This document shows positions 142-26,873 of a stretch of DNA of 37,046 bases, in pieces (position 1 is the first letter of the stretch; every line of letters starts with the position of its first letter). The notes beneath the pieces are model-generated. The model worked only from the letters and a program-made list of their open reading frames with translations, did not search any database and had not been told where the DNA came from. The position numbers and the translations under genes were made by a program. Source of the stretch: a virus (taxonomy: Duplodnaviria > Heunggongvirae > Uroviricota > Caudoviricetes); the IMG/VR virus record IMGVR_UViG_2896601577_000003; one strand, written 5' to 3'.

Positions 142-492
142 AGCGCTTGCTCCTTTTTCGGGGAGGCGCTAACCTATCACTTGCTTAGGGTAGACGGTTA
201 GGGCCTCGGTTAAACAAAAATGTTTTCCGGGGCCTTTCCACATCTGGCCTTCAGGTATTCCCTCCGACCATCAGCCGAAAGGCACCCGCGCGTAATCTAT
301 CGCTTTTTTGTTACTCCGGCAATTCTGCTCGTTAATTCTGAGGTAAGGGCAAACTCATCTGATTGTTTCCTCTGTGTGAAGTTGGCAGTTCATGCCACGG
401 GTAGACTGGCCCCCTGAATCTCCAGACAACCAGTATCACTTAAATAAGTGATAGTCTTAATACTAGTTTTTAGACTAGTCATTGGAGTACAG

Positions 493-854
493 ATGATTGA
501 TGTCTTAGGGCCGGAGAAACGCAGACGGCGTACCACACAGGAAAAGATCGCAATTGTTCAGCAGAGCTTTGAACCGGGGATGACGGTCTCCCTCGTTGCC
601 CGGCAACATGGTGTAGCAGCCAGTTATTTCTCTGGCGTAAGCAATACCAGGAAGGAAGTCTTACTGCTGTGGCCGCCGGAGAACAGGTTGTTCCTGCCTC
701 TGAACTTGCTGCCGCCATGAAGCAGATTAAAGAACTCCAGCGCCTGCTCGGCAAGAAAACGATGGAAAATTAACTCCTCAAAGAAGCCGTTGAATATGGA
801 CGGGCAAAAAAGTGGATAGCGCACGCGCCCTTATTGCCCGGGGATGGGGAGTAA
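493..854 (+). pseudogene. insC: IS2 orfA (InsC), frame-broken
   Basis: ORF 448..720 contains [44 protein letters not shown] (InsC N-terminus) and then leaves the InsC frame near 620. An in-frame TAA follows at 771-773 (MEN*). Intact InsC should be about 121 aa ending near 854. Confidence 0.7.
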
Positions 855-1717
855 GCTTAGTCAGCCGTTGTCTCCGGGTGTCGCGTGCGCAGTTGCACGT
901 CATTCTCAGACGAACCGATGACTGGATGGATGGCCGCCGCAGTCGTCACACTGATGATACGGATGTGCTTCTCCGTATACACCATGTTATCGGAGAGCTG
1001 CCCACGTATGGTTATCGTCGGGTATGGGCGCTGCTTCGCAGACAGGCAGAACTTGATGGTATGCCTGCGATCAATGCCAAACGTGTTTACCGGATCATGC
1101 GCCAGAATGCGCTGTTGCTTGAGCGAAAACCTGCTGTACCGCCATCGAAACGGGCACATACAGGCAGAGTGGCCGTGAAAGAAAGCAATCAGCGATGGTG
1201 CTCTGACGGGTTCGAGTTCTGCTGTGATAACGGAGAGAGACTGCGTGTCACGTTCGCGCTGGACTGCTGTGATCGTGAGGCACTGCACTGGGCGGTGACT
1301 ACCGGCGGCTTCAACAGTGAAACAGTACAGGACGTCATGCTGGGAGCGGTGGAACGCCGCTTCGGCAACGATCTTCCGTCGTCTCCAGTGGAGTGGCTGA
1401 CGGATAATGGTTCATGCTACCGGGCTAATGAAACACGCCAGTTCGCCCGGATGTTGGGACTTGAACCGAAGAACACGGCGGTGCGGAGTCCGGAGAGTAA
1501 CGGAATAGCAGAGAGCTTCGTGAAAACGATAAAGCGTGACTACATCAGTATCATGCCCAAACCAGACGGGTTAACGGCAGCAAAGAACCTTGCAGAGGCG
1601 TTCGAGCATTATAACGAATGGCATCCGCATAGTGCGCTGGGTTATCGCTCGCCACGGGAATATCTGCGGCAGCGGGCTTGTAATGGGTTAAGTGATAACA
1701 GATGTCTGGAAATATAG
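812..1717 (+). CDS. insD: IS2 orfB (InsD) transposase, DDE catalytic domain
   Basis: 301-aa ORF; sequence matches IS2 InsD as I recall it (…[32 protein letters not shown]…[19 protein letters not shown]…). Confidence 0.9.
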
Positions 1718-1728
1718 GGGCAAATCCA

Positions 1729-1924
1729 ACGGGATGCCCTCTGATGAGTGAATGGGGGAGGCGTGCTTTGAAGTGAATTTGTGGAAGGCTTCCAGTGTTG
1801 AGAAACATACGCCGCATTCTAGATTGTTACACTGATAATACTTTTGTCTCACGGTGTTTGAATCATTTTCCGGACGACTGGTGCGGATACGGGCAGATGC
1901 GCCACAAAGCGGACAACGGAACAT
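1729..1924 (-). pseudogene. ogr: Ogr/Delta-family zinc-finger late-gene activator, interrupted after codon 65 by IS2 (3' remainder at 332-396)
   Basis: N-terminus MFRCPLCGASARIRTSRPENDSNTVRQKYYQCNNLECGVCF has the C-x2-C ... C-x4-C spacing of P2 Ogr. ORF 1688..1924 runs into the IS2 end (the tail [11 protein letters not shown] is IS2-encoded and recurs on ORF 33127..33366). Joining 1729 to 396 across the duplication restores an 86-codon ORF ending TAA at 334-332. Confidence 0.7.
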
Positions 1925-2059: not shown

Positions 2060-4918
2060 TTATTCTGATGTCACTCTTTGCGAGTGAGCTATTTTTAAAT
2101 CAGCGTTTCCTTCAAATACTACATTCAACTCATAGTTAAGAGTTAGCTTGAATTTTTCTGAGTCACTTTTGATATTCTCTGAAGTGACATTTACTAACTT
2201 ATTATTATCATATTCTCTAATAATTAATTTAGTGAAGTAGTTATCCTTTACCACAAGAGAAAATGGTTGATTAACAAATGGTAAGAAGTAAACCTTACGG
2301 GTACCGGATTCAGTAGTTATGTTCATAGAGCCATCATCATTTTTTCTCATTAGTTCTCTGAGGTTGGGATTATCGAAAAGCATACGATTATATTGCTGAA
2401 AGATCTCTTTACTCATCACAAGAACCAGTTTGCCAGCCAAGTCAGCAGATGATTTTATGTGATCAATCAACATATTGAAATCTTCTATTACGGTATGTTG
2501 CGAACAGCCAGTGCTAAATAAATTTGAAAGTATTATTCTCTGGATGTCCTTGAGAATTAAGTCTGCTTGAATATCACCTTCATTGATATAAGGGATGGAT
2601 TCTATTCCTTCGGCATACGGTTCTTTATCTATCTTAATAGATATCTTATGTTTTGTGAAACAATCGCTAGCCTGCTTAAAATCAATAGATTTGAAAAGTG
2701 AAAGAGGGAGCGTTTTCTTGATGCGTTTACGAAGATGTTCTGATGTTTTACGTGCAGTGCTATCTAGTCGATGTACATCTATGGCAGCATCCTGAAGTCT
2801 CATATCAAGATCTTTCTTTAGCATGTTAATATGCTCTTGAAGCAACTTTCTTAAGTTTTCTTTTTTTGTTTGGAGATCGTCCAATGTTAAAGTCAGCTTG
2901 ATTTTAGTGTATTCGATGGAGTTACAAATTTTTGATAATACTCCAATGAGTCGTTGCTTCTCACGATATGTTATATAGTTGTTTTCTATTGCTTCTTTTA
3001 TTTCTTTTGATACGCTATCGTTCTTGTTAGAAAAAATTAATAATAGCTGAACCCATGATTGTTCCATATCAATAAATCCACAGTCAAAAACATTACTGTA
3101 AACTCTGCCCATCACCATGTCTGTTTTATCATAGTCACGTAAACGCCTTGCTAAACTATTCATCCACCCATTGTGCTCCATATTTTCAGACCATGTCCAC
3201 AGGCAGATTCTAATTAATATCTTGATTAGTTGGCTTGCATTATCAATTTCTTCAGTGGGAGTTTCATATCCACCGGTTTGGTCAATAAGTTTACCCTCTA
3301 AAATAAGTTTAATGTAATGTGTCATTAGTTTGTCAGAAGTATTGATTCTTGATGTCAGATAAAGACATGTGCATATACGCATGTCAGTCAACGCATTTAT
3401 GATGGCAATATTGAACCACTCTCTGTCTGAATTGAAGTTTAGTTTTTTGGATATGAAAAAAACCGGGTTAAAAAGCTGGCCTTTGTAACTGTATTTTTCT
3501 ACCGAATGGCTGTCAATATTCATTGAGTGCTGCCATCGGTTAATAAGATCGACGGCTGTATCAATAGTAGAAGGATCGCGAGTCTGTGTTGCATCAATAA
3601 TCATCGATGGAAGTTCTTGTAGTTGCGTTTTGCAAAATAATTCAAATAAATCTGAATTCTCTGTATTGCAGAAACGAAAGTTTATGCTTTCTTGATATTG
3701 CTCCCAAACAGTGGTATAGGTTCTTAATATACGATTATAACGTGAACGAAGCGAGGCATTTAAGAGTGATTGGTTGTTTCGGAACCATTCTGTCAATATT
3801 GACCATTGTGAACGAGTAATTCCCATATAGATACAAAGTTCATTGCTGATAAGATGTTTTCTATTATTGATAATACGCACTCCGCTCCAAAGACATAATT
3901 CAAAAAATCTTTCAGAAAGATTAATTTTATCCATGGAATTATTTGATATTTTATAAACTTCATCTGAAAACTCATATTGAAAACTCCGTTCAAATAATTC
4001 TGTAGTGATCAGTAAGAAGTTATTGTTGGTATTATCATCTTGAAAAAAATACAAATCGCAGAGATTATTAAAGTTATTAATTAATGCAGAGATAGCATTG
4101 TCAAAACTAATGAGATCAGAATCCCGCAGATACATATACGTATCTGCTGTTATAGCCTGCATTGTAAGACTTACGGAAAAATCTCCTCCTTTAATCGGAG
4201 CCCTATAAAAACATTGCTTAAGTATTTTTATTAATAAGCTGTCTGGTTTGATATTTTTAACGCTAAAAAGTATCTTACCCGTGGATTCTGTTTCTTTTGT
4301 ACGATTATCACCAATGACAAATGACGCAAAATGATTCTTCTTTTTTAGTTGGTAATTAATAAGATTAAGAGTAAGTTGAAAAGGACGGTGATATAAACTT
4401 AACTCATCTTCCTTAGAATAACTGCTAGCCACAGATATGTATTCTCCTTTGTAATCAGCTTGCTTGATTTCTAAATTTGAATAGTTATGTTTTTGATAGA
4501 TAGGGTATAACCTAAGCTTGGCTGAGATTTTGTTACAAATATGGGGCATTACTATTTCGAAGGCAATGTATCGCTTTATAATTATTTGCCGTTTTACATC
4601 ATCAAGAATTTCAAGACTCACGATAAAGAACCAAATAGAAAGAACTATGTTTATCAAAAGCCATAATATGCTGATTAGACAAGCTATACCATAAAGATAA
4701 CTTCCAAAGACAGTTTTAATTAGTACACTGAGAAGTATAAATCCTGATAAGAAAAGCCCGCTGAGTCCAGCAAGCATGAATCCTGAGTAACGCTGATAAG
4801 CAGTTTGGGCTATTTTTCTATCTGCCTTTTTTTGGAATAAGATACTTACTAAACCTATAACAAGGGGTATACAATACCAATAATTGTCAATTGGCCACTT
4901 AAAATGGTTGTTTGCCAT
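2060..4918 (-). CDS. Hypothetical 952-aa membrane-anchored protein, unknown family (cargo gene in AT-rich island)
   Basis: Uninterrupted 2859-nt ORF in visibly AT-rich DNA. The first ~110 aa contain 3-4 hydrophobic helices (CIPLVIGLVSILF; FMLAGLSGLFLSGFILLSVLI; YLYGIACLISILWLLINIVLSIWFFIVSL). The remaining ~840 aa are Lys/Asn/Ile-rich with a coiled-coil-like stretch (…LTLTLDDLQTKKENLRKLLQEHINMLKKDLDMRLQD…). I found no Walker A, PD-(D/E)xK, HEPN or kinase motif by eye. Confidence 0.6.
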   Translation of the reverse strand: MANNHFKWPIDNYWYCIPLVIGLVSILFQKKADRKIAQTAYQRYSGFMLAGLSGLFLSGFILLSVLIKTVFGSYLYGIACLISILWLLINIVLSIWFFIVSLEILDDVKRQIIIKRYIAFEIVMPHICNKISAKLRLYPIYQKHNYSNLEIKQADYKGEYISVASSYSKEDELSLYHRPFQLTLNLINYQLKKKNHFASFVIGDNRTKETESTGKILFSVKNIKPDSLLIKILKQCFYRAPIKGGDFSVSLTMQAITADTYMYLRDSDLISFDNAISALINNFNNLCDLYFFQDDNTNNNFLLITTELFERSFQYEFSDEVYKISNNSMDKINLSERFFELCLWSGVRIINNRKHLISNELCIYMGITRSQWSILTEWFRNNQSLLNASLRSRYNRILRTYTTVWEQYQESINFRFCNTENSDLFELFCKTQLQELPSMIIDATQTRDPSTIDTAVDLINRWQHSMNIDSHSVEKYSYKGQLFNPVFFISKKLNFNSDREWFNIAIINALTDMRICTCLYLTSRINTSDKLMTHYIKLILEGKLIDQTGGYETPTEEIDNASQLIKILIRICLWTWSENMEHNGWMNSLARRLRDYDKTDMVMGRVYSNVFDCGFIDMEQSWVQLLLIFSNKNDSVSKEIKEAIENNYITYREKQRLIGVLSKICNSIEYTKIKLTLTLDDLQTKKENLRKLLQEHINMLKKDLDMRLQDAAIDVHRLDSTARKTSEHLRKRIKKTLPLSLFKSIDFKQASDCFTKHKISIKIDKEPYAEGIESIPYINEGDIQADLILKDIQRIILSNLFSTGCSQHTVIEDFNMLIDHIKSSADLAGKLVLVMSKEIFQQYNRMLFDNPNLRELMRKNDDGSMNITTESGTRKVYFLPFVNQPFSLVVKDNYFTKLIIREYDNNKLVNVTSENIKSDSEKFKLTLNYELNVVFEGNADLKIAHSQRVTSE

Positions 4919-5178
4919 TCGGTTAATGAATGCCTAAACGGGAAATAATGTAAAAGATTATTTTTTATAAATAATTCGTTTAAATATCCAACATAAAGTA
5001 GTACAAATGAAAAAGCTGATATGCAAAGTACTGATTTAACCGGTGAGGATGTTAATCTTATGATGTTTTTTTCAATAAAATTCCATTTTAAATTCGAATA
5101 AAATGGATTTTTAACCATTTTATTACGAACATAGTTCTTTGCTAAAATCTCTGTTGCACTTAAAAATTGTCCAATCAT
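4855..5178 (-). CDS. Small hypothetical membrane ORF (107 aa), either a separate gene or the frame-shifted N-terminus of the 952-aa gene
   Basis: ORF overlaps the 5' end of the large ORF by 64 nt in another frame. Contains a hydrophobic helix (VLCISAFSFVLLYVGYL). Same AT-rich composition. Homopolymers GGGG/AAAA lie in the overlap. Confidence 0.35.
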   Translation of the reverse strand: MIGQFLSATEILAKNYVRNKMVKNPFYSNLKWNFIEKNIIRLTSSPVKSVLCISAFSFVLLYVGYLNELFIKNNLLHYFPFRHSLTEWQTTILSGQLTIIGIVYPLL

Positions 5179-5426
5179 GAATTACTCTTCTATAAAGTGT
5201 GGGTCTACTAACTAAACTGGAACTTTTACTATTGAGTCATATTCCCTTGGACGGGATGGACTGTGAAGATTATACTTGACTTCCTCTGTCATGTGGGAAA
5301 AACATCCGTATTATTGTTAGCATCTGGTTGATGCCCCAACCTCTGACATCTAGTGGGCTGATACATTATCTTTTGTTCTTACTGTCAGTGTAGAAGCACA
5401 TCTCAAAAATAATATTTTTAAGAGAT

Positions 5427-6534
5427 TTATTCTGTTTCTGCTATCCATTCCGGGATTTTTGCTTCAAGTTCAAGCTGCGTGGTAAAGCCGCTGTTATCAA
5501 TGGTGTGCTCGGCTTTTGCAATAATCCAGTCCTGATAATCAATCTCGCTTTTAAAGCCTGTCACTGTGCCATGCATTTCGGGATAGAGTTCTGCACGACC
5601 ACGCGCCAGCGTGATGGAGAATGATGCGGCTCCGCGTTGTAGCTGCTGCCACTTTGCCGCCGCTGCGCGTCTTGCTGCCTGCTCGTTCTGATAAGTCTTG
5701 CGTAACACAAACACGTTGCCTTCCGCACCTTCCATATAGTCGCCTTCCCGACTGCTACTTTTCTCCTTTTTGGGTTTTGGCGGTTTGCGGCGTTTCACGC
5801 TGACTTTTTTCTTTTTCCCGTAATTAAGATCAAGCCAGTAGGCGCGTACCCCCGTATACGCCTCGCGGTCAGCAATGCGGAACTGATGGCGATCGCCGCT
5901 GCTGCGTGTAATGGCGAACGAGGGCAACGGCTGCCCCTGTGCGTTCACGCCACCACCTGGCATGATGAATAACAGATTGCCGCTTTTTACCGTGGCGATT
6001 GCTCCCAGCATTTCCGCCATGCGCGTAAGAAAGGACATGTCGCTTTCTTCGGTCTGGTCGGCGTGGTCGATTTCGATATCCATCAGCATTTCGCTGATTT
6101 GCGGTTTCAGACCGTATCGATGAGCGATGGCGGATACCACACGCTCAACGGTCACATCATGCCAGGACACCTCACGTTTAACGTTAAATTCATCCCGAAA
6201 ATCTGCGCTTCTGGCTGAAACAGTCAGCCTGTCCGGCGGTCCTTCGTGAGCGATTTCATCAACAATGTAAGTGCCTTTTTCTGTCAGCGGTTCCCCTTTC
6301 CAGCCAATGAGAACCGTCAGACGCGGCCCCGTGGCGGTAGCTGCAACTGACCATCCGCATCATCCAGCGTGATGGTGAGCTGGTCCGCCTCAAATCCCCG
6401 GTTGTCGGTCAGTTACAGGCTCATCAGGCGCTCCGCCACGCCTGACAGCGTTTTACCCTCCGAGAGAATATCAAAATCCGGCATTTTCACGGGGGCCGTG
6501 CCCTGACTGAGCAATTGCATGGTGGTGTCGGTCA
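5427..6534 (-). pseudogene. D: P2 gpD-like tail protein; C-terminal 247 codons intact, N-terminal third frame-broken
   Basis: ORF 5427..6170 matches the P2 D C-terminal region as recalled (…ATVKSGNLLFI…ITRSSGDRHQFRIADREAYTGV…REGDYMEGAEGNVF…SGFTTQLELE…). ATG at 6534-6532 gives MTDTTMQLLSQGTAPVKMPDFDILSEGKTLSGVAERLMSL, then an in-frame TAA and frame changes before 6170. Confidence 0.8.
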
Positions 6535-6692
6535 TCTACTCCCTCCCTGTGCGGCATGGTCGCATGTGCGTGCGGAGGGGGTTACTGCTTTTTGTTGTCG
6601 CCGTGGCGGGAGAACGGCGCAGGGGTGAGATTACGCGCGTGGTGGGTGATGATTGTTGCTGAATCATTTAACGGATACAAGGGGCTGAAGCT

Positions 6693-7877
6693 ATGAGTGA
6701 AACTCGTTTTCATGGTGCCCGTGTTACGGAGAATACCGACCTGGTAACAGCGATTAACGATGTTGATTCCAGCGTTATCGGTATCGTGGCAACGGCGGAT
6801 GATGCGGACGCGAAGCTGTTCCCGCTGAACAAGCCCACACTGCTGACCCGCGTCAATGACGTGCTGGGAAAATGCGGGACAACGGGGACGCTTTATCGTG
6901 CGCTTAAGGCCATCGCAGACCAGGTGAGCACAAAGGTGATCGTCGTTCGCGTGGCTGAACACAAAGAAGAAGACGGAAAGACGCAGGATCAACTGGTTAT
7001 CGGTGGTTCTGAGGATGACGGCAGCTATACGGGGATGTATGCGCTGCTTGTTGCAGAGCAGGATGAAAGCATCGGATACCGTCCGCGTATTCTGGCCGCG
7101 CCGGAGCTGGACACGGAGGCGGTAACAAAATCCCTGTGCGTGATTGCAGATAAACTGCGCGCGTTTGTGTATGCCTCATGTCATGGCTGTAACACGATGG
7201 CCGAGGCAATTACCTACCGCCAGAAATTCAACGAACGTGAGGTGATGCTCTTATGGCCGGACTTCATCGCCTACAACCCGAAAAATGGCAAAAACGAAAC
7301 GTTCCCCGCGCCTGCCTATGCGTGCGGCCTTCGTGCGTACATTGACCATGAACAGGGATGGCACAAATCGCTGTCCAACGTTCCGGTTAAAAATGTGCTG
7401 GGGATGTCGAGGCATGTGTTCTGGTCGTTGCAGGCCGAAGACAGCGATGCCAACAGCCTCAACAACAAAGAAATCACGACCATTATTCGTCGCAACGGGG
7501 TCCGCTTCTGGGGTAACCGCACACCGGAAACGAACGCCTACATCTTTGAGGTGTATACCCGAACCGCACAGGTGCTGGCTGATTCAATTGCGGAAGCGCA
7601 GTTTGAAACCATCGACAGTCCACTGACGCCTGCGAATGTGAAGGATGTTATCAGTGCCATCAGGGCAAAACTGGATTCACTGGTGACTGCCGGGAAACTG
7701 ATTGGCGCGGAGTGCTGGTATGACGTGGTGGATAACAGCACCACGGATTTACGTCAGGGACGTGTGCGTATTCGCTACAAATATACGCCCGTTCCGCCAC
7801 TGGAAGACATGGAGCTTTACCAGACGTTTACTGATGAATACTTTGAACCCGCATTTGCGGTGCTGGGAGGTGCCTGA
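6693..7877 (+). CDS. FI: Contractile tail sheath protein (P2 FI-like)
   Basis: 394 aa; motifs …FPLNKP…RILA…LRAF…REVMLLWPDF…EQGWHKSLSNV…RFWGNRT…TRTAQV…YTPVPPLE… match the P2 FI sheath family. AAGGGG RBS upstream. Confidence 0.9.
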   Translation: MSETRFHGARVTENTDLVTAINDVDSSVIGIVATADDADAKLFPLNKPTLLTRVNDVLGKCGTTGTLYRALKAIADQVSTKVIVVRVAEHKEEDGKTQDQLVIGGSEDDGSYTGMYALLVAEQDESIGYRPRILAAPELDTEAVTKSLCVIADKLRAFVYASCHGCNTMAEAITYRQKFNEREVMLLWPDFIAYNPKNGKNETFPAPAYACGLRAYIDHEQGWHKSLSNVPVKNVLGMSRHVFWSLQAEDSDANSLNNKEITTIIRRNGVRFWGNRTPETNAYIFEVYTRTAQVLADSIAEAQFETIDSPLTPANVKDVISAIRAKLDSLVTAGKLIGAECWYDVVDNSTTDLRQGRVRIRYKYTPVPPLEDMELYQTFTDEYFEPAFAVLGGA

Positions 7878-8353
7878 TGGCTGTGCCAAAACATCTTCGC
7901 TTTTTTACGCTGTTTGTGGATGGTGAAAACGAAGTGGGTAATGTGACGTCCGTCACTCTGCCTAAGCTGACGCGCAAAACCGACAGCTACCGGGGTGGTG
8001 GCATGATGGGTGCGGTAAGTATTGATCTCGGTCTGGACGACTCCGCGCTTGATGCGAGCTTTGTCATGGGGGCGCAGTTCGTGAGCTGTTCCTTAAGTAT
8101 GGCGGCACGATTGACGGCACGCTGCTGCGTTTTGCGGGTGAATACTACACCGATGCAGAAAGCGACCTGTATGAAGTCGAAATGCGCGGACGTGTGACGG
8201 AAATTGATATGGGGGAAGCCAAACAGGGCGAAGCCACATCACACACTTACGCCATTAAAACACCTACTACAAGCTGAGTGTTAACGATCGCCCGTTGTGG
8301 GAGATTGACCTGCTGAACTTCATTTACCGGAAGGACGGGGTAATGACTCCAAC

Positions 8354-8731
8354 TTATTGATAGTGTTTTATGTTCAGATAATGCCCGATGACTTTGTCAT
8401 GCAGCTCCACCGATTTTGAGAACGACAGCGACTTCCGTCCCAGCCGTGCCAGGTGCTGCCTCAGATTCAGGTTATGCCGCTCAATTCGCTGCGTATATCG
8501 CTTGCTGATTACGTGCAGCTTTCCCTTCAGGCGGGATTCATACAGTGGCCAGCCATCCGTCATCCATATCACCACGTCAAAGGGTGACAGCAAGCTCATA
8601 AGACGCCCCTGCGTCGCCATAGTGCGTTCACCGAATACGTGCGCAACAACCGTCTTCCGGAGCCTGTCATACGCGTAAAACAGCCAGCGCTGGCGCGATT
8701 TAGCCCCGACGTATCCCCACTGTTCGTCCAT
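8354..8731 (-). CDS. insB: IS1 InsB (expressed as InsAB' by -1 frameshift)
   Basis: 125-aa [43 protein letters not shown]… matches IS1 InsB. Confidence 0.9.
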
Positions 8732-8775
8732 TTCCGCGCAGACGATGACGTCACTGCCCGGCTGTATGCGCGAGG

Positions 8776-9051
8776 TTACCGACTGCGGCCTGAGTTTTTT
8801 AAGTGACGTAAAATCGTGTTGAGGCTAACGCCCATAATGCGTGCAGTTGCCCGGCATCCAACGCCATTCATGGCCATATCAATAATTTTCTGGTGCGTAC
8901 CGGGTTGAGAAGCGGTGTAAGTGAACTGCAGTTGCCATGTTTTACGGCAGTGAGAGCAGAGATAGCGCTGATGTCCGGCAGTGCTTTTGCCGTTACGCAC
9001 CACCCCGTCAGTAGCTGAACAGGAGGGACAGCTGATAGAAACAGAAGCCAC
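8776..9051 (-). CDS. insA: IS1 InsA
   Basis: 91 aa [46 protein letters not shown]… matches IS1 InsA. Confidence 0.9.
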
Positions 9052-9219
9052 TGGAGCACCTCAAAAACACCATCATACACTAAATCAGTAAGTTGGCAGC
9101 ATCACCGAAGGACGGCAAGGACATTGTGCCCGATCGCATCCGTTCCGCGCTTGGGCTTGGCTGATAAGTAATATGCTGGCGGCGCAGTGCGTCGCCTCTG
9201 ACTGAAAAGGAGACAACAG

Positions 9220-9594
9220 ATGAAAGACATCGATACTGAAACCCGGAATAACACCGTGGCGGATAATGTGACGGCAGTTGAGGATATGGCTGTCGAACGT
9301 GGCGTAAAACTGACCCGACCAATTGAGCGTGGTGGCGAAAAAATCACGTATGTGGAGATCACCGGGGCTATTGAGCAGGCTGGATCCCTGCGTGGTCTGT
9401 CGCTGTCTGATGTGCTGAATCTGAAAGCGGATACCATGTTCACGCTGTTGCCTCGCGTGACCTCGCCACGACTGGATGAAGTGATGATTAAAAAAATGTC
9501 GTCACGCGATTTTATTCAGTTGTGCGCTGTGGCTGTAAATTTTATGAGCGAGCCAGACTCTGGCGCGAAGAGCGTGCAGGAGACGGCAGCGTAA
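9220..9594 (+). CDS. E: Tail assembly chaperone (P2 gpE-like)
   Basis: 124-aa ORF between the tube and tape-measure genes. A downstream ORF in the -1 frame (open from 9492 to 9758) overlaps its 3' end, the conserved chaperone frameshift arrangement. Confidence 0.8.
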   Translation: MKDIDTETRNNTVADNVTAVEDMAVERGVKLTRPIERGGEKITYVEITGAIEQAGSLRGLSLSDVLNLKADTMFTLLPRVTSPRLDEVMIKKMSSRDFIQLCAVAVNFMSEPDSGAKSVQETAA

Positions 9595-9758
9595 TCACCC
9601 TGGTGTGCTTTGAGCACATCGAAGATCTGGTGGCGGATATTGCCGCCATTTTTAACTGGTCGCCCGCCGAAATCTTCATGATGACGCCCTGCGAAGTGGT
9701 TAGCTGGCGTGAGCGAGCGGCACTTCGTAGCGGGAATGCAGACAATGAAGACTCTTGA
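9492..9758 (+). CDS. E' extension reached by programmed -1 frameshift (E+E' fusion)
   Basis: -1 frame is open from 9492. A run of seven A (9490-9496, …ATT AAA AAA ATG… in the E frame) lies exactly where the two frames overlap. Confidence 0.55.
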   Translation, partial: KNVVTRFYSVVRCGCKFYERARLWREERAGDGSVITLVCFEHIEDLVADIAAIFNWSPAEIFMMTPCEVVSWRERAALRSGNADNEDS

Positions 9759-12551
9759 TATCCGGGTCGCTTTCAGCGCCGTTGACAGGCTGACCCGGCC
9801 TGCCGAAAACGCCCGCCGCCTGATGGGGCAGTTTGGTGACTCCATCCAGCGAACGCAGGGGGCGATCAAAAATCTCGAGCGTCAGGCGCGATCATTTGAG
9901 CGCGCCCGTGACGCTGTCAGTAAAGCGGATGCGGGCATCGTGAAAGCACGACGCCAGCTTAACGCCCTTAATCAGTTACAACGCACGGGTACAGTGCTCA
10001 GCGAAAAACAACAAAAGCTGATGCAGCAGTTAAGCACCCGGCTTGAACGCCTGAATGAATCGCGCACACGGGAAATTCAGAAAATGCGGGAGCTTGGCGG
10101 AGAGCTGAAACGCCACGGCATTTCCCTGACAGGCAGCGATAACACCATCCAGCAGGCCATCAGACGCACCGAACAGTACAACAACCAGCTTGAACGCGAA
10201 CGGCAGGCGCTTGCGCGTGTAACACGGGCGCGTGAGCGGTATTCGCGCGCGCAGGAAACAGCGGGAAAACTGAAAACAGGTGGTGCGCTGGCAATTGGTG
10301 CGGCAGCGGCGGGCGGCTATGCTGCCGGGCGTTTTTTGCAGCCTGCGATCGGGTTCGGCAAAGAGATGTTCCGCGTTCAGGCACTGACGCGAATCGACCA
10401 GAACAGCCCGCAGTTTAAGGCGCTGCGTGAGCAGGCGTTAAAACTTGGCTCTGAAACGCAGTTCACCGCAGGCGATGCCGCCAGTGGACAGGCATTTCTT
10501 GCAATGGCTGGCTTTACACCACAGGCCATTCAGGCTGCGCTCCCTGGCGTACTGAGCATGGCAACGGCTGGCGGTATGGACCTCGGTGAGACGGCGGATA
10601 TTGGCTCAAATATTCTGACGCAGTTCGGTCTTTCTGCTGACCAGATGGACCGGGTCGGCGACACACTCACCGCAGCGTTTACCCGTACCAACACTGACCT
10701 TCGCGCACTGGGTGAAACCATGAAATATGCAGGTCCGGTGGCGGGTAAGCTGGGAATATCTCTGGAGCAGGCCGCAGCGATGGCGGGCGTGCTGGCGAAT
10801 ATGGGTATCAGGGGGAGTGATGCTGGTACGGCAATGCGTGCCAGCCTGGCTCGTCTGGCATCACCGCCAAAGGCGGCAGCAGAGGCGCTGAAAGAGCTTG
10901 GCGTGTCTGTCTCGGATGCCGGGGCAAAATGCGCCCGATGGAGGATGTGCTGGCTGACCTTTATAAAGCTACCCGCAAATACGGGGAAGTTGACCGGGTA
11001 TCGTTCTTTAAGGACATTGCCGGAGAAGAGGCTTTCACATCATTTATGGCCCTCGTTGATGCGGCAGGTGACGGCTCCTTACCCAAACTGAGAAAAGAAC
11101 TTGAAGGCGCGCGCGGTGAGGCTGAACGCACGGCAAAGGTTATGGCCAACAACCTTGACGGCGATCTGAAATCACTCAGCAGTGCATGGGAAGGGTTGCG
11201 CATCCGCATTGCAGATCTGATTGACGGTCCGCTGCGTTCTGTCACGCAGTGGCTCACGCGTGTGGTATCAAAGGTGACGGCGCTGGCGCAGGCCCATCCC
11301 GCACTGACGCGCCAGCTACTGATTGCAGGCGGTGCATTGCTGGCAATGACTGCAACGGTTGGCTCGTTGTCGCTGGCTATTGGTGTGCTTGCTGGCCCGC
11401 TGGCAAAACTGCGTCTTGGTTTTTCCCTCCTGACCGGATCAATGAATGCTGTCAGGGTTCTGCCAGCACTATGGGGAATGGTGACGGGTTCCGTTTCTTT
11501 ACTGGGAGGCGCTATCGGGGCGTTGTTCAGTCCGGTTGGTCTTATCGTGGCTGCGCTTGCCGGAGCTGCCGTTCTTATCTGGAAATACTGGGATCCCATC
11601 AGGGCATTTTTTGCCGGGGTGTTCAGCGGGATTATGGAAAGGCTGACCCCGTTGCGCGAAACATTTGAACGGTTTGGTCCTGTTTTTGACGCAATCGGGA
11701 GTGGGATCAGCCAGGTGTTTAACTGGTTTAAATCGCTGCTGTCACCGATGGAGTCCAGCAAGGAAACTCTGGATAAATGTACCAGTGCTGGCGAGATATT
11801 CGGTAACGTTCTTGGCGGTGCGTTACAACTTGTTCTGACACCTGCAAAAATGTTGCTGGATACGCTGGCGTGGATACTTGAAAAGCTTGGTGTGCTTCCG
11901 GATGAAGCGGAAAGGGCGCGCAAGAAAATCGAAGACGCACAGCGTGCGGCCATTCTTCAGGACAAGGTTGCCTTGCTTCAGGGGGACCTGGCGAAAATCA
12001 ATCCGCCGAAGCCTGTGGAAAATGGCAATGGCACCGGAGGTGATAACCCCAAAGACAATAAACCGCTCACAGACAGCAATACCGGTACGCTGCGCAGACT
12101 CAGCAAAATTGCTGATAACACAGGTAAGCTGGTTGAGGAGACGAAAAAACGCATTGGCCCCGGCGATATTGTCTTTAAAAACCTGCCCCGAGCACTTGCT
12201 GTTCGTGGGGAGTGGCAGGAGCGGAAGATTGCGCAGGTCAGTAAGCCTGCCCCCGCAATTAATATCACACCCGTGGTTCCGGCTCCGCTGCCTCCGGCGC
12301 TGGTCCCTGTTGTTGCGGCCAGCTCCCGCCCGGTGGCGGAGGCTATACGATCTCCAGTGGCATCAGTTCCTGTAACTTCCCGTAACCGGGAGCCTGTTGC
12401 CTCCGGATTTGGTGGTGAAATTCATGTTCATCTGCATAACGTTGTTACGCAGAATCCCCGCGAACTGGCGAAACTGGTCGGTGAAATGGTCAGGGCAGAA
12501 ATGGAACGGCGCGCCCGTGCCGGGCGTGGCTGTTTTTACGATAAAGATTGA
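9736..12551 (+). pseudogene. T: Tail tape-measure protein (P2 gpT-like), split into two overlapping ORFs by a frame break
   Basis: ORFs 9709..11091 and 10929..12551 together give an ~810-aa Ala/Gly-rich protein with a hydrophobic central segment, typical of tape-measure proteins. The frames switch between about 10900 and 11090. Confidence 0.85.
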
Positions 12552-12557
12552 GGAGTC

Positions 12558-13052
12558 ATGGCCATGATGATGATCTACGGCATGTTTGTTTTTGAGCTGC
12601 GCACGCTGCCGCATCAGCAGTTACAGCAAAACAAAAGCTGGCGGCATGTGAAAAATGAACGCGTTAACCGTTCAGCAAGCTGGCAGTATATCGGTGCAGG
12701 TGATGATCGCATCGTTCTTTCTGGTGTGCTTTATCCTGAAATTACAGGTGGCGAAGTGTCGCTGTCGCTGCTGACCACGCAGGCGTATACAGGACGACCC
12801 TGGCCTTTGATTGATGGCGTCGGGCAGATTTACGGCATGTATGTCCTGACTGAAACGAATACGACCCGCTCCGAGTTTGATCGCTACGGTAAGGCGAAAA
12901 AGATAGAATTTTCACTGACTCTTGAACGCTGTGATGAGGATTTGCGGGAGCGCCTGCAATCCTCATCGTTCAGTGATATGCTGTCCGGCTTCAAAGATAA
13001 GGTGACATCATCTCTTAACAGCGCGGCCAGTTCAGTTAAAGGGCTGTTCTGA
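12558..13052 (+). CDS. U: Tail protein (P2 gpU-like)
   Basis: 164-aa ORF immediately after the tape-measure gene; sequence is consistent with the P2 gpU family as recalled. Confidence 0.8.
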   Translation: MAMMMIYGMFVFELRTLPHQQLQQNKSWRHVKNERVNRSASWQYIGAGDDRIVLSGVLYPEITGGEVSLSLLTTQAYTGRPWPLIDGVGQIYGMYVLTETNTTRSEFDRYGKAKKIEFSLTLERCDEDLRERLQSSSFSDMLSGFKDKVTSSLNSAASSVKGLF

Positions 13053-13065
13053 TTTAACACAAAAA

Positions 13066-13097
13066 CCGCTAATGGTCAGATTAGCGGTTTTCATTTT
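13066..13097. terminator. Bidirectional hairpin between convergent U and invertase genes
   Basis: Perfect 12-bp inverted repeat AAAACCGCTAAT / ATTAGCGGTTTT with a 6-nt loop, flanked by T-rich tracts on both strands. It overlaps the invertase stop codon. Confidence 0.5.
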
Positions 13098-13697
13098 CCT
13101 GAGTCTGCCCGGTTGTTTCTTCAGTCTGTATATCGCCTACAGGGTGATAACGATAAATCGTCGATGTGCCAATGCCGTAAATTATTGCCAGTTGTTTTCT
13201 GTCGTGCCCGTTTTTGATTAGCCTTGCTATTTGCTCATGCTGTTCTTTTGTCAGCTTCGGTCGACGTCCGCCTGTGCGCCCCTTGCGCGCGCTGCCGCCA
13301 GCCCGGCCAGTGTACGTTCAACAATTAATTCACGTTCCATTTCAGCCAGGGCACCCATCACGTGGAAGAAAAAACGCCCCATTGGAGAAGATGTGTCTAT
13401 GCTGTCGGTCAGACTGCGAAAATTAATCCCTCGCTCCCGTAGTTCCCCGACGAGAGAAATCAGATGTTTCATGCTTCGCCCGAGGCGATCCAGTTTCCAG
13501 ACAACCAGCGTGTCACCTTTTTGAAGGCGCTTTAAAGCGCGTTTTAATCCCGGTCGGTCTGTCTTTGTCCCGCTTAATTTATCTTCAAATATTTGTTCAC
13601 ATCCTGCACAAACAAGAGCGTTTCGTTGCAGGTCTGTATTCTGGTCATTTGTTGATACCCTTACATAGCCAATCAGCACACTGAATCTCCCGTCCAA
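13081..13697 (-). CDS. Serine DNA invertase (Hin/Gin/Pin/Cin family), one frame break near the catalytic-domain/HTH junction
   Basis: N-terminus …LIGYVRVSTNDQNTDLQRNAL…DTLVVWKLDRLGRSMKHLISLVGELRERGINFRSLTDSIDTSSPMGRFFFHVMGALAEMERELIVERT… is typical of this family. The C-terminal HTH (GRTGGRRPKLTKEQHEQIARLIKNGHDRKQLAIIYGIGTSTIYRY) is read in a shifted frame from about 13255. Confidence 0.85.
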
Positions 13698-13733
13698 AAG
13701 CGCAAATCATGCCATGCAGGCCAGAAACGGCCA

Positions 13734-13759
13734 TTATTTAAAACCTCGGTTTACAGGAA
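13734..13759. repeat. gix/hix-like 26-bp crossover site (left boundary of the invertible tail-fibre cassette)
   Basis: TTATTTAAAACCTCGGTTTACAGGAA closely resembles the Mu gix site as I recall it, and is a 21/26 inverted match to the site at 17187-17212. Confidence 0.7.
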
Positions 13760-14620
13760 ACGGTAAACAGGGCTGGTAACGCCGTGCAAAAAAATGGCGA
13801 TACCTTGTCCGGTGGGCTTACTTTTGAAAATGACTCAATCCTTGCCTGGATTCGAAATACTGACTGGGCGAAGATTGGATTTAAAAATGATGCCGATGGT
13901 GACACTGATTCATACATGTGGTTTGAAACAGGCGACAACGGCAATGAATATTTCAAATGGAGAAGCCGCCAGAGCACCACAACAAAAGACCTGATGACGC
14001 TGAAATGGGATGCACTAAATATTCTTGTTAATGCTGTCATTAATGGCAGTCTTGGAGTTGGTTCGACGAATGCGTTAGGTGGTAGCTCTATTGTTCTTGG
14101 TGATAATGACACCGGATTTAAACAGAATGGAGACGGTATTCTGGATGTTTATGCTAATAGTCAGCGTGTATTCCGCTTTCAGAATGGAGTGGCTATTGCT
14201 TTTAAAAATATTCAGGCCGGGGATGGTAAAAAATTCACGCTATCCAGCTCCAACAACTTCACAAAGAATGCAACGTTTAATTTATGGGGTGCTTCAACCC
14301 GTCCAGTAGTTGCAGAGTTAGGCGATGAGGCAGGATGGCATTTCTATAGCCAGCGAAATACAGATAACTCGGTAATATTTTCTGTTAACGGTCAGATACA
14401 GCCCAGCAACTGGGGGAATTTTGATTCACGCTATGTAAAAGATGTTCGCCTGGGTACGCGTGTTGTTCAATTGATGGCGCGTGGTGGTCGTTATGAAAAA
14501 GCCGGACACGCAATTACCGGATTAAGAATCATTGGTGAAGTAGATGGCGATGATGAAGCCATCTTCAGACCAATACAAAAATACATCAATGGCACATGGT
14601 ATAACGTCGCACAGGTGTAA
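13760..14620 (+). CDS. Alternative tail-fibre C-terminal variable domain (Sv), currently in the silent orientation
   Basis: Open frame from the crossover site; ends …IQKYINGTWYNVAQV, parallel to the other variable domain (…IQYCINGTWYNAGSI). Followed by a tail-fibre assembly gene. Confidence 0.7.
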   Translation, partial: TVNRAGNAVQKNGDTLSGGLTFENDSILAWIRNTDWAKIGFKNDADGDTDSYMWFETGDNGNEYFKWRSRQSTTTKDLMTLKWDALNILVNAVINGSLGVGSTNALGGSSIVLGDNDTGFKQNGDGILDVYANSQRVFRFQNGVAIAFKNIQAGDGKKFTLSSSNNFTKNATFNLWGASTRPVVAELGDEAGWHFYSQRNTDNSVIFSVNGQIQPSNWGNFDSRYVKDVRLGTRVVQLMARGGRYEKAGHAITGLRIIGEVDGDDEAIFRPIQKYINGTWYNVAQV

Positions 14621-14623
14621 ATT

Positions 14624-15151
14624 ATGCAGCATTTAAAAAATATTAAGTCCGGAAATCCAAAAACAAAAGAACAATATCAGCTAACAAAGAATTTTGATGT
14701 TATCTGGTTATGGTCCGAAGACGGTAAAAACTGGTATGAGGAAGTAAATAACTTTCAGGACGACACCATAAAGATTGTATACGACGAAAATAATATTATT
14801 GTTGCCATAACCAAAGATGCCTCAACGCTTAATCCCGAAGGCTTTAGTGTCGTTGAGATTCCAGATATAACAGCCAATCGTCGCGCCGATGATTCAGGGA
14901 AGTGGATGTTTAAGGACGGAACTGTGGTTAAGCGGATTTATACAGCAGACGAACAGCAACAACAGGCCGAATCACAAAAGGTCGCGTTGCTTTCTGAAGC
15001 TGAAAGCGTTATTCAGCCACTGGAACGCGCTGTCAGGCTGAATATGGCGATGGATGAGGAACGCACACGACTGGAGTCATGGGAACGCTACAGCGTTCTG
15101 GTCAGCCGTGTGGATACAGCAAATCCCGAATGGCCACAAAAGCCTGAGTAA
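14624..15151 (+). CDS. Tail-fibre assembly protein (Tfa/U type) for the silent fibre variant
   Basis: 175 aa, N-terminus [40 protein letters not shown]…; paralogous to ORF 15180..15713 on the opposite strand. Confidence 0.8.
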
Positions 15152-15179
15152 AAATTAAGGCCCAATATCGGGCCTTCTC

Positions 15180-15713
15180 TCATTCTGGTTGTTCGGGAAA
15201 CGTTACTGGCAGGCTGGAGGTGTCTGTAGATTCGACTTTCTGCGCATAGAGCATCCACTCGGTTAATTTTTGTTTATTCTCGTCGGAAATGATGCCCAGC
15301 CGTAGCTGTGAGTCCCATAGCTGGGTTTTATCCCTGACAAGTTGCAACAGGCTTTGCTTTTCATTTTCCGCTTGTTGCCTCTGCTCTTCCTCGGTATAAG
15401 TTCGCTTTATCACTACGCCATCTTTGAACAACCATTTCCCCGAAATATCAGCCCGGCGATTTGCTGTAATATCAGGTAATTCAACGACGCTTGCGCCTTC
15501 CGGATTAATTGCTGAAACATCCTTTTCAATACAAATAATAACGCCGTTATGGTCATAGACCATTTTCAAAGTGTCTGGCTGGAAATTCTTTTGTTCCTCA
15601 TACCAGTTTTTTCCATCATCTGAATAAAGCCATTTGATGTTAAATTGCTTTGTTAGCTGGTATTGCTCTTTTGTTTTAGGGTTGCCAGCAGTAATGTTTT
15701 TTAAGTGCATCAT
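15180..15713 (-). CDS. Tail-fibre assembly protein (Tfa/U' type) for the currently joined fibre variant
   Basis: 177 aa [40 protein letters not shown]…; convergent with its paralogue, as in Mu/P1-type invertible fibre cassettes. Confidence 0.8.
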   Translation of the reverse strand: MMHLKNITAGNPKTKEQYQLTKQFNIKWLYSDDGKNWYEEQKNFQPDTLKMVYDHNGVIICIEKDVSAINPEGASVVELPDITANRRADISGKWLFKDGVVIKRTYTEEEQRQQAENEKQSLLQLVRDKTQLWDSQLRLGIISDENKQKLTEWMLYAQKVESTDTSSLPVTFPEQPE

Positions 15714-15715
15714 CG

Positions 15716-17186
15716 TTAAATACTCCCCGCGTTATACCACGTCCCATTAATGCAATACTGAATTGGCCTTGCCTGTGTTGTATCAATTAATTCATCACGG
15801 TTTCCGTTAACTGAACCCGTAACGACATAACCTGACCTGTCAGACCAGCCGGGACCATTCCATGTCTGAACAGATGACAGACCGCCAAGGCGAATACCTG
15901 TAATAAACCTTGAGTTACATTCTGCCCGCGTATATGCACCAACATCTCCCGCTGAAGGTTTTCGTGTCGTGGTATAGAAATCTGACCAACCTAATTCAAC
16001 CCGGTAATGACTCCAACTTATTGATAGTGTTTTATGTTCAGATAATGCCCGATGACTTTGTCATGCAGCTCCACCGATTTTGAGAACGACAGCGACTTCC
16101 GTCCCAGCCGTGCCAGGTGCTGCCTCAGATTCAGGTTATGCCGCTCAATTCGCTGCGTATATCGCTTGCTGATTACGTGCAGCTTTCCCTTCAGGCGGGA
16201 TTCATACAGTGGCCAGCCATCCGTCATCCATATCACCACGTCAAAGGGTGACAGCAAGCTCATAAGACGCCCCAGCGTCGCCATAGTGCGTTCACCGAAT
16301 ACGTGCGCAACAACCGTCTTCCGGAGCCTGTCATACGCGTAAAACAGCCAGCGCTGGCGCGATTTAGCCCCGACGTATCCCCACTGTTCGTCCATTTCCG
16401 CGCAGACGATGACGTCACTGCCCGGCTGTATGCGCGAGGTTACCGACTGCGGCCTGAGTTTTTTAAGTGACGTAAAATCGTGTTGAGGCTAACGCCCATA
16501 ATGCGTGCAGTTGCCCGGCATCCAACGCCATTCATGGCCATATCAATAATTTTCTGGTGCGTACCGGGTTGAGAAGCGGTGTAAGTGAACTGCAGTTGCC
16601 ATGTTTTACGGCAGTGAGAGCAGAGATAGCGCTGATGTCCGGCAGTGCTTTTGCCGTTACGCACCACCCGTCAGTAGCTGAACAGGAGGGACAGCTGATA
16701 GAAACAGAAGCCACTGGAGCACCTCAAAAACACCATCATACACTAAATCAGTAAGTTGGCAGCATCACCATTCAACCCCATAACCATCACGAGCCGACCT
16801 GTAGGAAATGCCACCATTTTTATAATTCACACGGAATTGTACGGCAGGACAGCTACCAGCATTTATATTAAAGTGAAGAATTAATGTAGATGCACCACCA
16901 ATCAGGGCGTTATATGCACTACTATCCCAATTCCATCCAATGGATGTATCACCATTAACAGTATTACCTGTTTGTCGGAGTGCAAATGCATTGACATTTT
17001 TGGCACTAATTGAAATATCGCTAGAACCATCAAAACCAACTCCAGCAATTTTTCGTGCTGTTTTCAGCTTTGTTGCAGTAGCGGCATTGCCGGACAGTTC
17101 CCAGAAAGGCCACCGCTGAATGTTTGTCGATTGGTCCAGGTATTCGCTGTACTGAGTAACGGTATTTTCTCCCCGCTTGTGCCGAG
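15716..17186 (-). pseudogene. Tail-fibre variable C-terminal segment (Sv') joined in frame to H, interrupted by IS1 copy 2
   Basis: Reading on from H through the crossover site gives …AKNVNAFALRQTGNTVNGDTSIGWNWDSSAYNALIGG…DGYGVE | IS1 | …GWSDFYTTTRKPSAGDVGAYTRAE…IQYCINGTWYNAGSI, stop at 15718-15716. Confidence 0.7.
16003..16769 (-). mobile_element. IS1 copy 2 inserted inside the invertible tail-fibre cassette
   Basis: Same termini as copy 1. Perfect 9-bp target-site duplication ATTCAACCC at 15994-16002 and 16770-16778. InsB intact (16018..16395); insA frame-broken at a C-run (ORFs 16440..16667 and 16532..16714). Confidence 0.95.
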
Positions 17187-19896: not shown

Positions 19897-19899
19897 GAT

Positions 19900-20250
19900 T
19901 TACTCCCTCAGCGTGATGGTTAATTCAACATTCTGCATGGTCTGCATGACAGTGCCCGACAGCGTCACCCCGGCGCGGCCTCCTGCCTTCCAGACAACGT
20001 CGATAGCGTCCAGGGCAATGCGGGGTTCCCATCGTGTCAGCGCAATCACGGCAGCACTCATGCATTGCAGACGCGTGGTGTTATTCATGGGTTCGTCAAT
20101 CAAATCAGGCACAAGGCTGCCATATTCCCGTCGCATAACCCGGCTTGCCAGCGGGGTGGTCAGGATGTCCCTGACTGACTGTTTCAGGTGCTCCATATCG
20201 TTCAGGTTTCCCGTTCCGTCCGGGTTCATTCCTGTGTAGCGGGTTGTCAC
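19900..20250 (-). CDS. W: Baseplate wedge protein (P2 gpW-like)
   Basis: 116 aa, GTG start overlapping the V stop (GTGA); position and size match P2 W. Confidence 0.8.
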   Translation of the reverse strand: MTTRYTGMNPDGTGNLNDMEHLKQSVRDILTTPLASRVMRREYGSLVPDLIDEPMNNTTRLQCMSAAVIALTRWEPRIALDAIDVVWKAGGRAGVTLSGTVMQTMQNVELTITLRE

Positions 20251-23172: not shown

Positions 23173-23174
23173 TG

Positions 23175-26752: not shown

Positions 26753-26873
26753 GATGGCAAAGCGTAACAGGCTGATACAAAGGGCTTTTGTTGTAAGAAA
26801 ACGGCCAGAACAGAGGGTTAAGGAGAACAGTTTCGCGCGCGGGTAATCTTCCTGTAATTACTCAGGGGGAGCA

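Follow-up and report, generated by a model that had tools for sequence, protein, structure and literature searches.

The FI-U tail-gene block divergent from D in a P88-like prophage is the inherited gene order of phage P88 and its relatives

Introduction

In phage P2 (NC_001895), the F operon reads FI FII E E' T U D and is followed by ogr; FI-U, D, ogr and V-G all point the same way, and U overlaps D. The consensus of the Ogr-type activator site, TGT-N12-ACA, and its dependence on Ogr have been described (PMC3931495). The divergent P2 promoters pP and pO are annotated as having one activator site in common. At P2 pF, the centre of the activator site lies 82-83 bp from the FI ATG, and the -10 element, GAAAAT, occupies positions 53-58 from the site start.

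A different order is found in Escherichia phage P88 (NC_026014 / KP063541), whose relatives include P884B11, 520873, 503458, 500465-2 and Citrobacter PhiSM. Of these, P88 and PhiSM are known to be active (PMC5285337, PMC6456863). In the P88 record, D and V-H are encoded on the strand opposite to that of U, T, E', E, FII and FI. The words inversion, inverted and orientation are absent from the P88 paper, and we found in the literature neither an explicit description of the FI-U inversion nor a description of an activator site common to D and FI.

Here we analysed a stretch of 37,046 nucleotides of viral DNA (the window; IMG/VR record IMGVR_UViG_2896601577_000003), in which the initial annotation had reported a flipped FI-U tail-gene block.

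Results

Gene order of the window

Searches of the window with P2 proteins (tblastn) identified the P2-type late genes Q P O N M L X, R S V W J I H G, FI FII E T U D and ogr, and gave no match in the window for the lysis genes Y, K, lysA and lysB. The matches to ogr (1727-1924), D (5430-6481) and H (17103-18458), as well as those to I, J, W, V, S, R, X, L, M, N and O, were located on the minus strand. The matches to FI (6711-7844), FII (7877-8342), E (9286-9561), T (9754-11912) and U (12564-12944) were located on the plus strand, together with those to P and Q. Pfam supported the assignments of the sheath, GPD, GpU and Ogr_Delta. The window lacks the common orientation of FI-U, D, ogr and V-G that is canonical in P2; in it, leftward ogr and D are followed by rightward FI FII E E' T U, the leftward invertase, the fibre cassette, and leftward H I J W V S R through to O (Table 1).

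The initial annotation was right on the layout: FI, FII, E, T and U are on the plus strand, whereas ogr, D and the genes for head and baseplate are on the minus strand, so that the block runs opposite to its direction in P2. FI diverges from D, with the start codons separated by a 157-bp spacer (6536-6692) and the D start codon at 6535, and U converges on the invertase, with the two stop codons (13050-13052 and 13081-13083) 28 bp apart.

Table 1 Features of the window and the evidence for them.
Feature	Position	Strand	Evidence or remark
ogr (Ogr/Delta zinc-finger late activator), split by IS2	332..1924	-	Pieces 1729-1924 and 332-401; P2 Ogr tblastn match
IS2 insertion in ogr	402..1728	+	5-bp target duplication ACGGG; NCBIfam IS2 TnpB, 727 bits
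Low-GC cargo ORF between D and ogr	2060..5178	-	ORFs; GC 0.32-0.34
Gene D (late control D / baseplate hub)	5427..6535	-	tblastn, ORFs; L003 D with Pfam Phage_GPD
D-FI divergent spacer, proposed bidirectional late promoter region (pD / pF)	6536..6692		Sequence conservation
-10-like GACCAT, D-ward	6556..6561	-	Positions 52-57, opposite strand; site-anchored alignment, 22 non-redundant loci
Candidate Ogr-type activator site TGT-N12-AGA (TGT-N12-ACA class)	6596..6613		1 mismatch
-10-like GATGAT, FI-ward	6648..6653	+	Positions 52-57 from site start; site-anchored alignment, 24 non-redundant loci
FI, tail sheath	6693..7877	+	ORF, tblastn, Pfam Phage_sheath_1
FII, tail tube	7877..9164	+	Interrupted by IS1 at 8339-9106
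IS1 copy 1, inside FII	8339..9106	-	Own 9-bp target duplication GAAGGACGG
E and E' tail assembly chaperone genes	9220..9758	+	ORFs, tblastn
T, tape measure	9745..12551	+	Frame broken near 10924 by 1-base deletion
U, tail protein	12558..13052	+	ORF, tblastn; Pfam Phage_P2_GpU on L003 copy
Perfect 12-bp-stem hairpin flanked by A run and T run	13062..13091		Resembles bidirectional terminator, U versus invertase
Serine DNA invertase (Gin/Pin/Hin type)	13081..13679	-	L003 copy: Pfam Resolvase and HTH_7
Invertible tail-fibre segment	13746..17200		gix-like sites 13746-13759 and 17187-17200
IS1 copy 2, inside invertible fibre segment	16003..16769	As copy 1	Own 9-bp target duplication ATTCAACCC
Second candidate activator site TGT-N12-AGA, O/P divergent spacer	26792..26809		Comparison for D/FI site

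The prophage is degraded, carrying five IS elements (two further IS3-family elements besides IS2 and the two IS1 copies) and a deletion of gene A. D, which had been read as a single open frame, is split by a 1-base deletion near 6325. FII contains two 1-base deletions (near 8067 and near 8256) besides its IS1 insertion, and the invertase frame is broken by another near 13282. The cargo gene between D and ogr encodes 1039 aa in an intact relative and is split in the window by a homopolymer deletion near 4863; it had no match in Pfam, PADLOC, NCBIfam or PHROGs. In total, about 20 single-base homopolymer deletions were observed in comparison with a 99.6% identical relative, suggesting error-prone reads; the resulting apparent frameshifts affect J, V, P and Q as well as D, T, FII and the invertase. 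In the intact relative L003, ogr is annotated and carries Pfam Ogr_Delta, and the collinearity of the window with L003 breaks in ogr at 401/1729.

The same order in relatives

Comparative analyses showed that the arrangement is a reproducible gene order and not a chance pattern. The window is collinear end to end with P88 and with an intact E. coli prophage. Its identity to P88 over 5431-13771 and 17192-30130 is 95-98%, as within a genus; to the intact prophage it is 99.6%, and here IS insertions are the only differences in layout. P88 carries D, FI to U, the invertase, the fibre cassette and H to V in the same arrangement, with an equal 157-bp D-FI spacer. The gene order is identical in the intact relative L003, which contains no IS, and is kept in relatives that lack an invertase (strains War and CM2). 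The D-FI junction was present in 1389 of the 5426 complete E. coli genomes (about a quarter) and the U-invertase junction in 621 of the 5426; every E. coli match of at least 95% identity spans the D-FI junction. Close relatives all share one orientation of the FI-U block.

A scan of species-representative genomes extended this comparison. Among the best 80 of 307 relatives, 48 loci had the P88 order, with D at least 61% identical and about 22 genera of Enterobacterales represented, and 32 had the P2 order, with D 47-54% identical; because only the best 80 of the 307 were taken, these counts are not prevalences. In neighbour-joining trees of D and FI, rooted on phiCTX, itself of P2 order, the 50 P88-order tips formed one clade in each tree with no exception, and L003 and P88, the closest relatives of the window, fell inside it. 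The single clade in both trees indicates one ancient inversion, to which the P88 order points back, with the P2 order taken as ancestral on the basis of one distant outgroup and general knowledge of contractile-tail gene order.

The initial annotation had by implication treated the orientation as a rearrangement or assembly problem peculiar to this genome, and had named related phages with the orientation as their ancestral arrangement as what would refute it. Such relatives exist (48 loci, a single clade), and the orientation is native to P88 and other isolated phages and occurs in 1389 complete E. coli genomes. The apparently flipped tail-gene block is the normal inherited order of P88 and its relatives; it is ordinary and involves no local rearrangement or error. 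We are highly confident that the window is a degraded P88-like prophage (Xuanwuvirus, Peduoviridae) whose order was inherited clade-wide from one ancient inversion and did not arise locally.

Other origins of the arrangement

The FI-U module might instead have been replaced in the clade ancestor by one from another phage lineage, inserted in the opposite orientation, with no inversion at all. Phage genomes are mosaic, the end result would look identical, and an origin of such age is unreadable from the junction sequences. However, the FI-U proteins are about as diverged from P2 (33-46% identity, tblastn) as the adjoining and remaining late proteins (36-61%), the FI and D trees show the same split, and pF retains the P2 geometry, with its site 74-88 bp from the FI ATG. 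We consider such a replacement improbable.

A recent inversion in the window genome, catalysed by the adjoining serine invertase at cryptic sites near 6560 and 13060, was suggested by the position of the invertase gene, which abuts the U end of the block, and by the neighbouring fibre cassette, which does invert. That cassette (13746-17200) is bounded by inverted crossover sites of the adjoining invertase, is known in both orientations, and is flipped in the window relative to P88. The gix-like sites, however, bound only the fibre cassette, and no cryptic invertase site was found at either junction (6535-6692 and 13053-13100), where the initial annotation had proposed searching. Inverted repeats were likewise lacking at the block ends, with only chance-level pairs observed; the best pair (26 nt, 73% complementarity) lies within the coding sequences of D and the invertase. 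Since the same order also occurs in relatives without any invertase, and all E. coli matches of at least 95% identity span the junction, we regard this explanation as very unlikely.

Mis-orientation of the block during genome assembly is hardly credible either. The homopolymer deletions point to error-prone reads and the five IS elements are repeats able to confuse assemblers, but the junctions are not at repeats, and their sequences recur in phage genomes and in hundreds of complete genomes that were assembled independently.

IS-mediated inversion has a negligible chance of being the cause. The window does contain five IS elements, including an IS1 copy inside the block and a second IS1 copy outside it, but, as the initial annotation had noted, the IS1 copies are in direct orientation with each keeping its own target duplication (9 bp) and the block ends lie away from IS elements. 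The signature of such an event, a segment flanked by IS copies in inverted orientation whose target duplications have been exchanged, is therefore absent, and the IS-free L003 has the same order.

Promoter-like elements in the D-FI spacer

A generic sigma-70 scan of the D-FI spacer gave nothing convincing, as expected for activator-dependent late promoters. Exact TGT-N12-ACA occurred 10 times in the window versus 9.5 expected, with none in the late spacers. The variant TGT-N12-AGA was found by comparing the D-FI and O/P spacers, and was then confirmed across loci. In the D-FI spacer, the distance from the centre of the candidate Ogr site (6596-6613) is 88 bp to the FI ATG and 69 bp to the D ATG. 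In 44 of the 48 P88-order loci, a TGT-N12-ACA site with no more than one mismatch was centred 74-88 bp upstream of the FI ATG.

Alignments anchored on the site revealed a conserved nAnnAT at positions 52-57 on both strands. The D-ward side additionally contained a conserved CGCGCGCG box at about 38-47, despite the variable length of the D leader; in the lineage of the window, this box is degenerate (CCGCACGCACATGC) and the activator site is TGT-N12-AGA. P2-order loci showed no such element beyond pF, on the side opposite to FI. In three loci (L034, L048 and L049), the site centre is just 40-48 bp from the extrapolated D start, a spacing that would fit a transcription start 55 bp from the centre only if D in fact begins further downstream. 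We also sought a third activator site for R/S/V; the single candidate was a weak match with two mismatches at 22372-22394, inside a lysis gene. As S overlaps V in the window, there is no separate pV gap, unlike in P2.

The initial annotation had expected D to be stripped of its operon promoter. The conserved promoter-like architecture of the spacer faces D as well as FI, however, and transcription of D most likely begins at a late promoter of its own. D was thus probably not left without a promoter; pD, and the common use of one site by D and FI, are inferred here from sequence conservation alone.

Discussion

These results support that the P88 order was inherited from an ancestral inversion, which would have covered the segment from pF through FI to U, broken upstream of pF at one end and at the boundary of U with D at the other. 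D would then have gained its own late promoter across the activator site from pF. We give a slightly better than even chance to the fuller reading, in which this clade-defining inversion was tolerated because the Ogr site is dyad-symmetric, the site giving rise to a D-ward pD and so to a second bidirectional late promoter. Transcription of the late genes would most likely start in two short divergent promoter regions, pP/pO and pD/pF, in each of which a single dyad-symmetric Ogr-type site lies about 55 bp from the transcription start on either side. The putative pD would lie next to the same site as pF, with the conserved CGCGCGCG box and a -10 element at fixed distance, in parallel with pP/pO. 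At the other end, FI-U transcription may stop at the bidirectional hairpin common to the converging gene, and the convergent operon ends made by the inversion may now host cargo, such as an invertase or an acetyltransferase.

The case is a caution that comparison with the type phage P2 alone makes a widespread, normal prophage order look rearranged. An FI-U block that diverges from D can serve annotation pipelines as a reliable marker of phages of the P88 type and their relatives. The biological interest is modest and lies in the inferred bidirectional pD/pF promoter with one common site; if true, it would show how a symmetric activator site permits an operon to be split and inverted without regulatory loss.

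Among known systems, the window resembles P2 in its gene set (33-61% protein identity), the internal order of FI-U, the geometry of pF and the position of ogr after D, and differs from it in the inversion of FI-U and the divergence of D from FI. The D/FI spacer of the window (157 bp) resembles P2 pP/pO (173 bp) and is close in size to the O/P spacer of the window (154 bp); like P2 pP/pO, it contains one site of the TGT-N12-ACA class approximately midway, here a candidate, with -10-like elements about 48 bp from the centre on both sides. A divergent D-FI junction, detected by matches spanning both genes, also occurs in phages of other host genera, namely Salmonella SEN4/SEN5 (matched through locus L039), Klebsiella 3LV2017 and ST16-OXA48phi5.4, and Serratia KSP20, at 67-71% nucleotide identity, and several of these phages lack an invertase. 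The closest described system is P88. Unlike P88, the copy in the window carries IS2 in ogr, IS1 in FII, IS1 in the fibre segment and two more IS3-family elements, lacks A, cox and neighbouring early genes, and has many homopolymer frameshifts. Its integrase and C repressor are only 43% and 37% identical to those of P88, a different cargo gene is located between D and ogr, and its fibre cassette is oppositely oriented.

Gene order of the FI-U block and its distribution

The tail genes FI, FII, E, E′, T and U were found on the plus strand and D, ogr and V through H on the minus strand, and tblastn with P2 proteins together with the ORF table confirmed this layout as initially annotated, including the divergent starts of D and FI and the short gap between U and the invertase gene. 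The genes were placed correctly, but not all of them are intact single ORFs: D, T, the invertase gene, FII and ogr are each disrupted. S abuts or overlaps V (window 20824-20827; 34069-34081 in L003, an intact E. coli prophage beside ihfA), with no gap like that of P2 orf30/pV.

Features of the prophage; genes were placed by tblastn of P2 proteins against the window unless ORF or element boundaries are given
Feature	Position (nt)	Strand	Remarks
IS2	402-1728		5-bp duplication ACGGG; in ogr after about codon 65 of 86
ogr	1727-1924	-	
Cargo ORF	2060-5178	-	between D and ogr; GC 0.32-0.34
D	5430-6481	-	start codon at 6535
D-FI divergent spacer	6536-6692		157 bp
Ogr-type activator site	6596-6613		in D-FI spacer
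FI	6711-7844	+	ORF 6693-7877
FII	7877-8342	+	
IS1 copy 1	8339-9106		in FII
E	9286-9561	+	
T	9754-11912	+	
U	12564-12944	+	ORF 12558-13052
U stop, invertase stop	13050-13052, 13081-13083		convergent, 28 bp apart
Hairpin	13062-13091		perfect; A run and T run on opposite sides
Invertible tail-fibre segment	13746-17200		
IS1 copy 2	16003-16769		within tail-fibre segment
H, I, J, W, V, S, R, X, L, M, N, O		-	
P, Q		+	
IS3-family transposase gene 1	31776-32501	-	early region; element span 31746-33168
IS3-family transposase gene 2	35133-36023	+	early region; span about 34750-36030

The FI-U order, initially regarded as a notable rearrangement, is the known and native order of P88-type phages and of a wide sister clade of P2, and it is already present in published phage genomes; our literature search found no paper explicitly discussing the FI-U inversion. 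Related phages having this orientation as their inherited one had been named beforehand as counting against a rearrangement, and they are found. By megablast, the region 5200-14000 shows 94-98% identity and collinearity throughout with P88 and related phages (Xuanwuvirus, Peduoviridae); it is collinear in 634 complete E. coli genomes as well. In the P88 record, one strand carries V, W, J, I, H and G with the fibre cassette, the invertase gene and D, and the opposite strand carries U, T, E′, E, FII and FI. L003 matches the window at 99.6% identity and has an identical order, three IS insertions being the sole difference in the region compared. Of 5426 complete E. coli genomes, 1389 matched a query of 701 bp across the D-FI junction (coverage at least 80%), and matches of at least 95% identity span the junction practically without exception; the U-invertase junction was found in 621 complete E. 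coli genomes. The FI-U order is independent of the invertase, because the orientation is kept with other genes after U, namely an acetyltransferase cargo gene in strain War and a directly following, converging fibre assembly gene in strain CM2 (junction 69.5% identical). The D-FI junction also occurs in isolated phages of other genera, such as Salmonella SEN4/SEN5, Klebsiella 3LV2017 and Serratia KSP20. The P88 order is compatible with a working phage, since both P88 and Citrobacter PhiSM have been reported as active and temperate (PMC5285337, PMC6456863).

Origin of the P88 order

One genome per bacterial species was searched with an alignment of D proteins, and the best 80 of 307 relatives were classified by tblastn with P88-type and P2 proteins. 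The P88 order (V W J I on plus, U T E FII FI on minus, D ogr on plus) was observed in 48 of these best 80 loci, with D identity to the P88 type of 61% or more, in Salmonella, Serratia, Erwinia, Pantoea, Klebsiella, Enterobacter, Citrobacter, Kosakonia, Pectobacterium, Brenneria, Edwardsiella, Hafnia, Yersinia, Morganella, Providencia, Xenorhabdus, Photorhabdus and others; 32 of the 80 had the P2 order (D 47-54% identical to the P88 type). One P88-like prophage, with D 98% identical to the E. coli type, was on a contig labelled Vagococcus sp. WN89Y, a Firmicute (NZ_JBQPOM010000071.1, 10001-11095), which is probably contaminant or mislabelled Enterobacterales DNA.

In neighbour-joining trees of D (n = 84 sequences) and FI (n = 74), rooted with Pseudomonas phage phiCTX, the 50 P88-order tips formed a single clade without exception. 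Because phiCTX carries the P2 order and the P88-order tips are monophyletic, the P2 order appears to be ancestral and the P88 order derived once, so that the latter is likely the product of a single inversion. Acquisition of the FI-U module from elsewhere fits less well than inversion in place, because FI-U (33-46% identical to the P2 proteins) is about as diverged as the other late proteins (36-61%).

A search of both block junctions for cryptic invertase sites and short inverted repeats had been suggested. No inverted repeats were found at the block ends, and the invertase crossover sequence occurs in the window only at 13746-13759 and 17187-17200, the bounds of the tail-fibre cassette, which is flipped relative to P88. 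The two IS1 copies are direct, each with its own 9-bp target duplication, as previously noted; recombination between them was ruled out by their orientation, the intact duplications and IS-free relatives. Recurrence of the junction sequences in hundreds of independent assemblies ruled out an assembly artefact.

State of the prophage copy

Independently of the FI-U order, this prophage is necessarily non-functional, owing to IS2 in ogr, which removes the C-terminal end of the late activator Ogr, IS1 in FII and in the fibre segment, two IS3-family elements, and the loss of A and cox. At the first IS3-family element, A, cox and P88 gp08-gp15 are missing, and ParM lacks its N-terminal 118 residues; with A, cox and their neighbours lost, replication and excision as in P88 are impossible. 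The second IS1 copy interrupts the fibre C-terminal exon now joined to H, and the fibre segment ends in gix-like sites (TTCCTGTAAACCGA / TTCTCGTAAACCGA).

About 20 single-base indels distinguish the window from L003 (including 4863, 6325, 8067, 8256, 10924, 13282, 17102, 18544, 19168, 20371, 27483, 28059, 28788 and 29997), nearly all of them one-base deletions in runs of 4-6 identical bases. They break the frames of D, FII, T, invertase, J, V, P, Q and the cargo ORF, with one deletion each in D, T and invertase, and two in FII besides the IS1. Because the deletions are so uniform in type, sequencing error is favoured over decay, which suggests that these genes are not real pseudogenes. Two further differences from L003 are not homopolymer changes and are thus probably real variation: a tandem insertion of 12 bp (GGCGCTGGCGCT) in Q, the portal gene (about 28924), and an 11-bp deletion near the N/O boundary (about 25757).

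The cargo ORF (1039 aa in L003, where RefSeq labels it an MFS transporter) had no match in Pfam, PADLOC, NCBIfam or PHROGs. The D-ogr slot holds a YecA-family gene in War and is empty in CM2, and these differences in content indicate a variable cargo site.

A putative bidirectional late promoter between D and FI

The proposal that D was separated from its promoter probably does not hold, given an Ogr-type site and a D-ward -10-like element in the D-FI spacer. The TGT-N12-ACA element is present in P2 late promoters, which require Ogr (PMC3931495), and in the P2 record the divergent promoters pP and pO are annotated with one activator site in common, about 55 bp from each start. Exact matches to TGTTGT-N12-AGAAC were found in the window only in the two divergent late spacers, O/P (154 bp) and D/FI. 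Among the 48 P88-order loci from the best 80 of 307, the D-FI spacer is 122-198 bp long, and 44 contain one TGT-N12-ACA site with at most one mismatch, its centre lying 74-88 bp before the FI start (82-83 bp in P2).

When spacers were aligned by anchoring on this site, the FI-ward strand showed a conserved nAnnAT (GATTAT, GATGAT, AACATA) at positions 52-57. On the D-ward strand, nAnnAT (GAAACTAT, AATCAT, GACCAT) likewise lies at 52-57 and is preceded by a conserved CGCGCGCG box at about 38-47; these positions hold despite the variable D leader length. The box, about 38-47 nt from the site start, is seen D-ward in most P88-order loci (L008-L051; D-ward side at window 6536-6613). A box of this type also occurs P-ward in the O/P spacer (window 26786-26873), as TTTCGCGCGCGGGTAATCT, and P2 has a similar GC-rich stretch, CGCGGGGCGCG, at the matching position on the P-ward side. 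P2-order loci have no D-ward-type element on the pF side facing away from FI. The site-to-D distance is only 40-48 bp in three loci, at odds with the promoter model, and the GC box is degenerate in the window's own lineage.

These motifs are most simply read as a bidirectional late promoter, pD/pF, in which both directions share a single symmetric activator site in the manner of pP/pO. D would be transcribed from the D-ward pD and FI-U from pF, one site serving both, and the FI-U transcript would end at the hairpin after U. This putative promoter and the likely single-origin inversion are modestly interesting by-products of the analysis. In the window's lineage, a single long late operon may run from O through G; if so, there would be four late units served by two divergent promoter regions, compared with pP, pO, pV and pF in P2.
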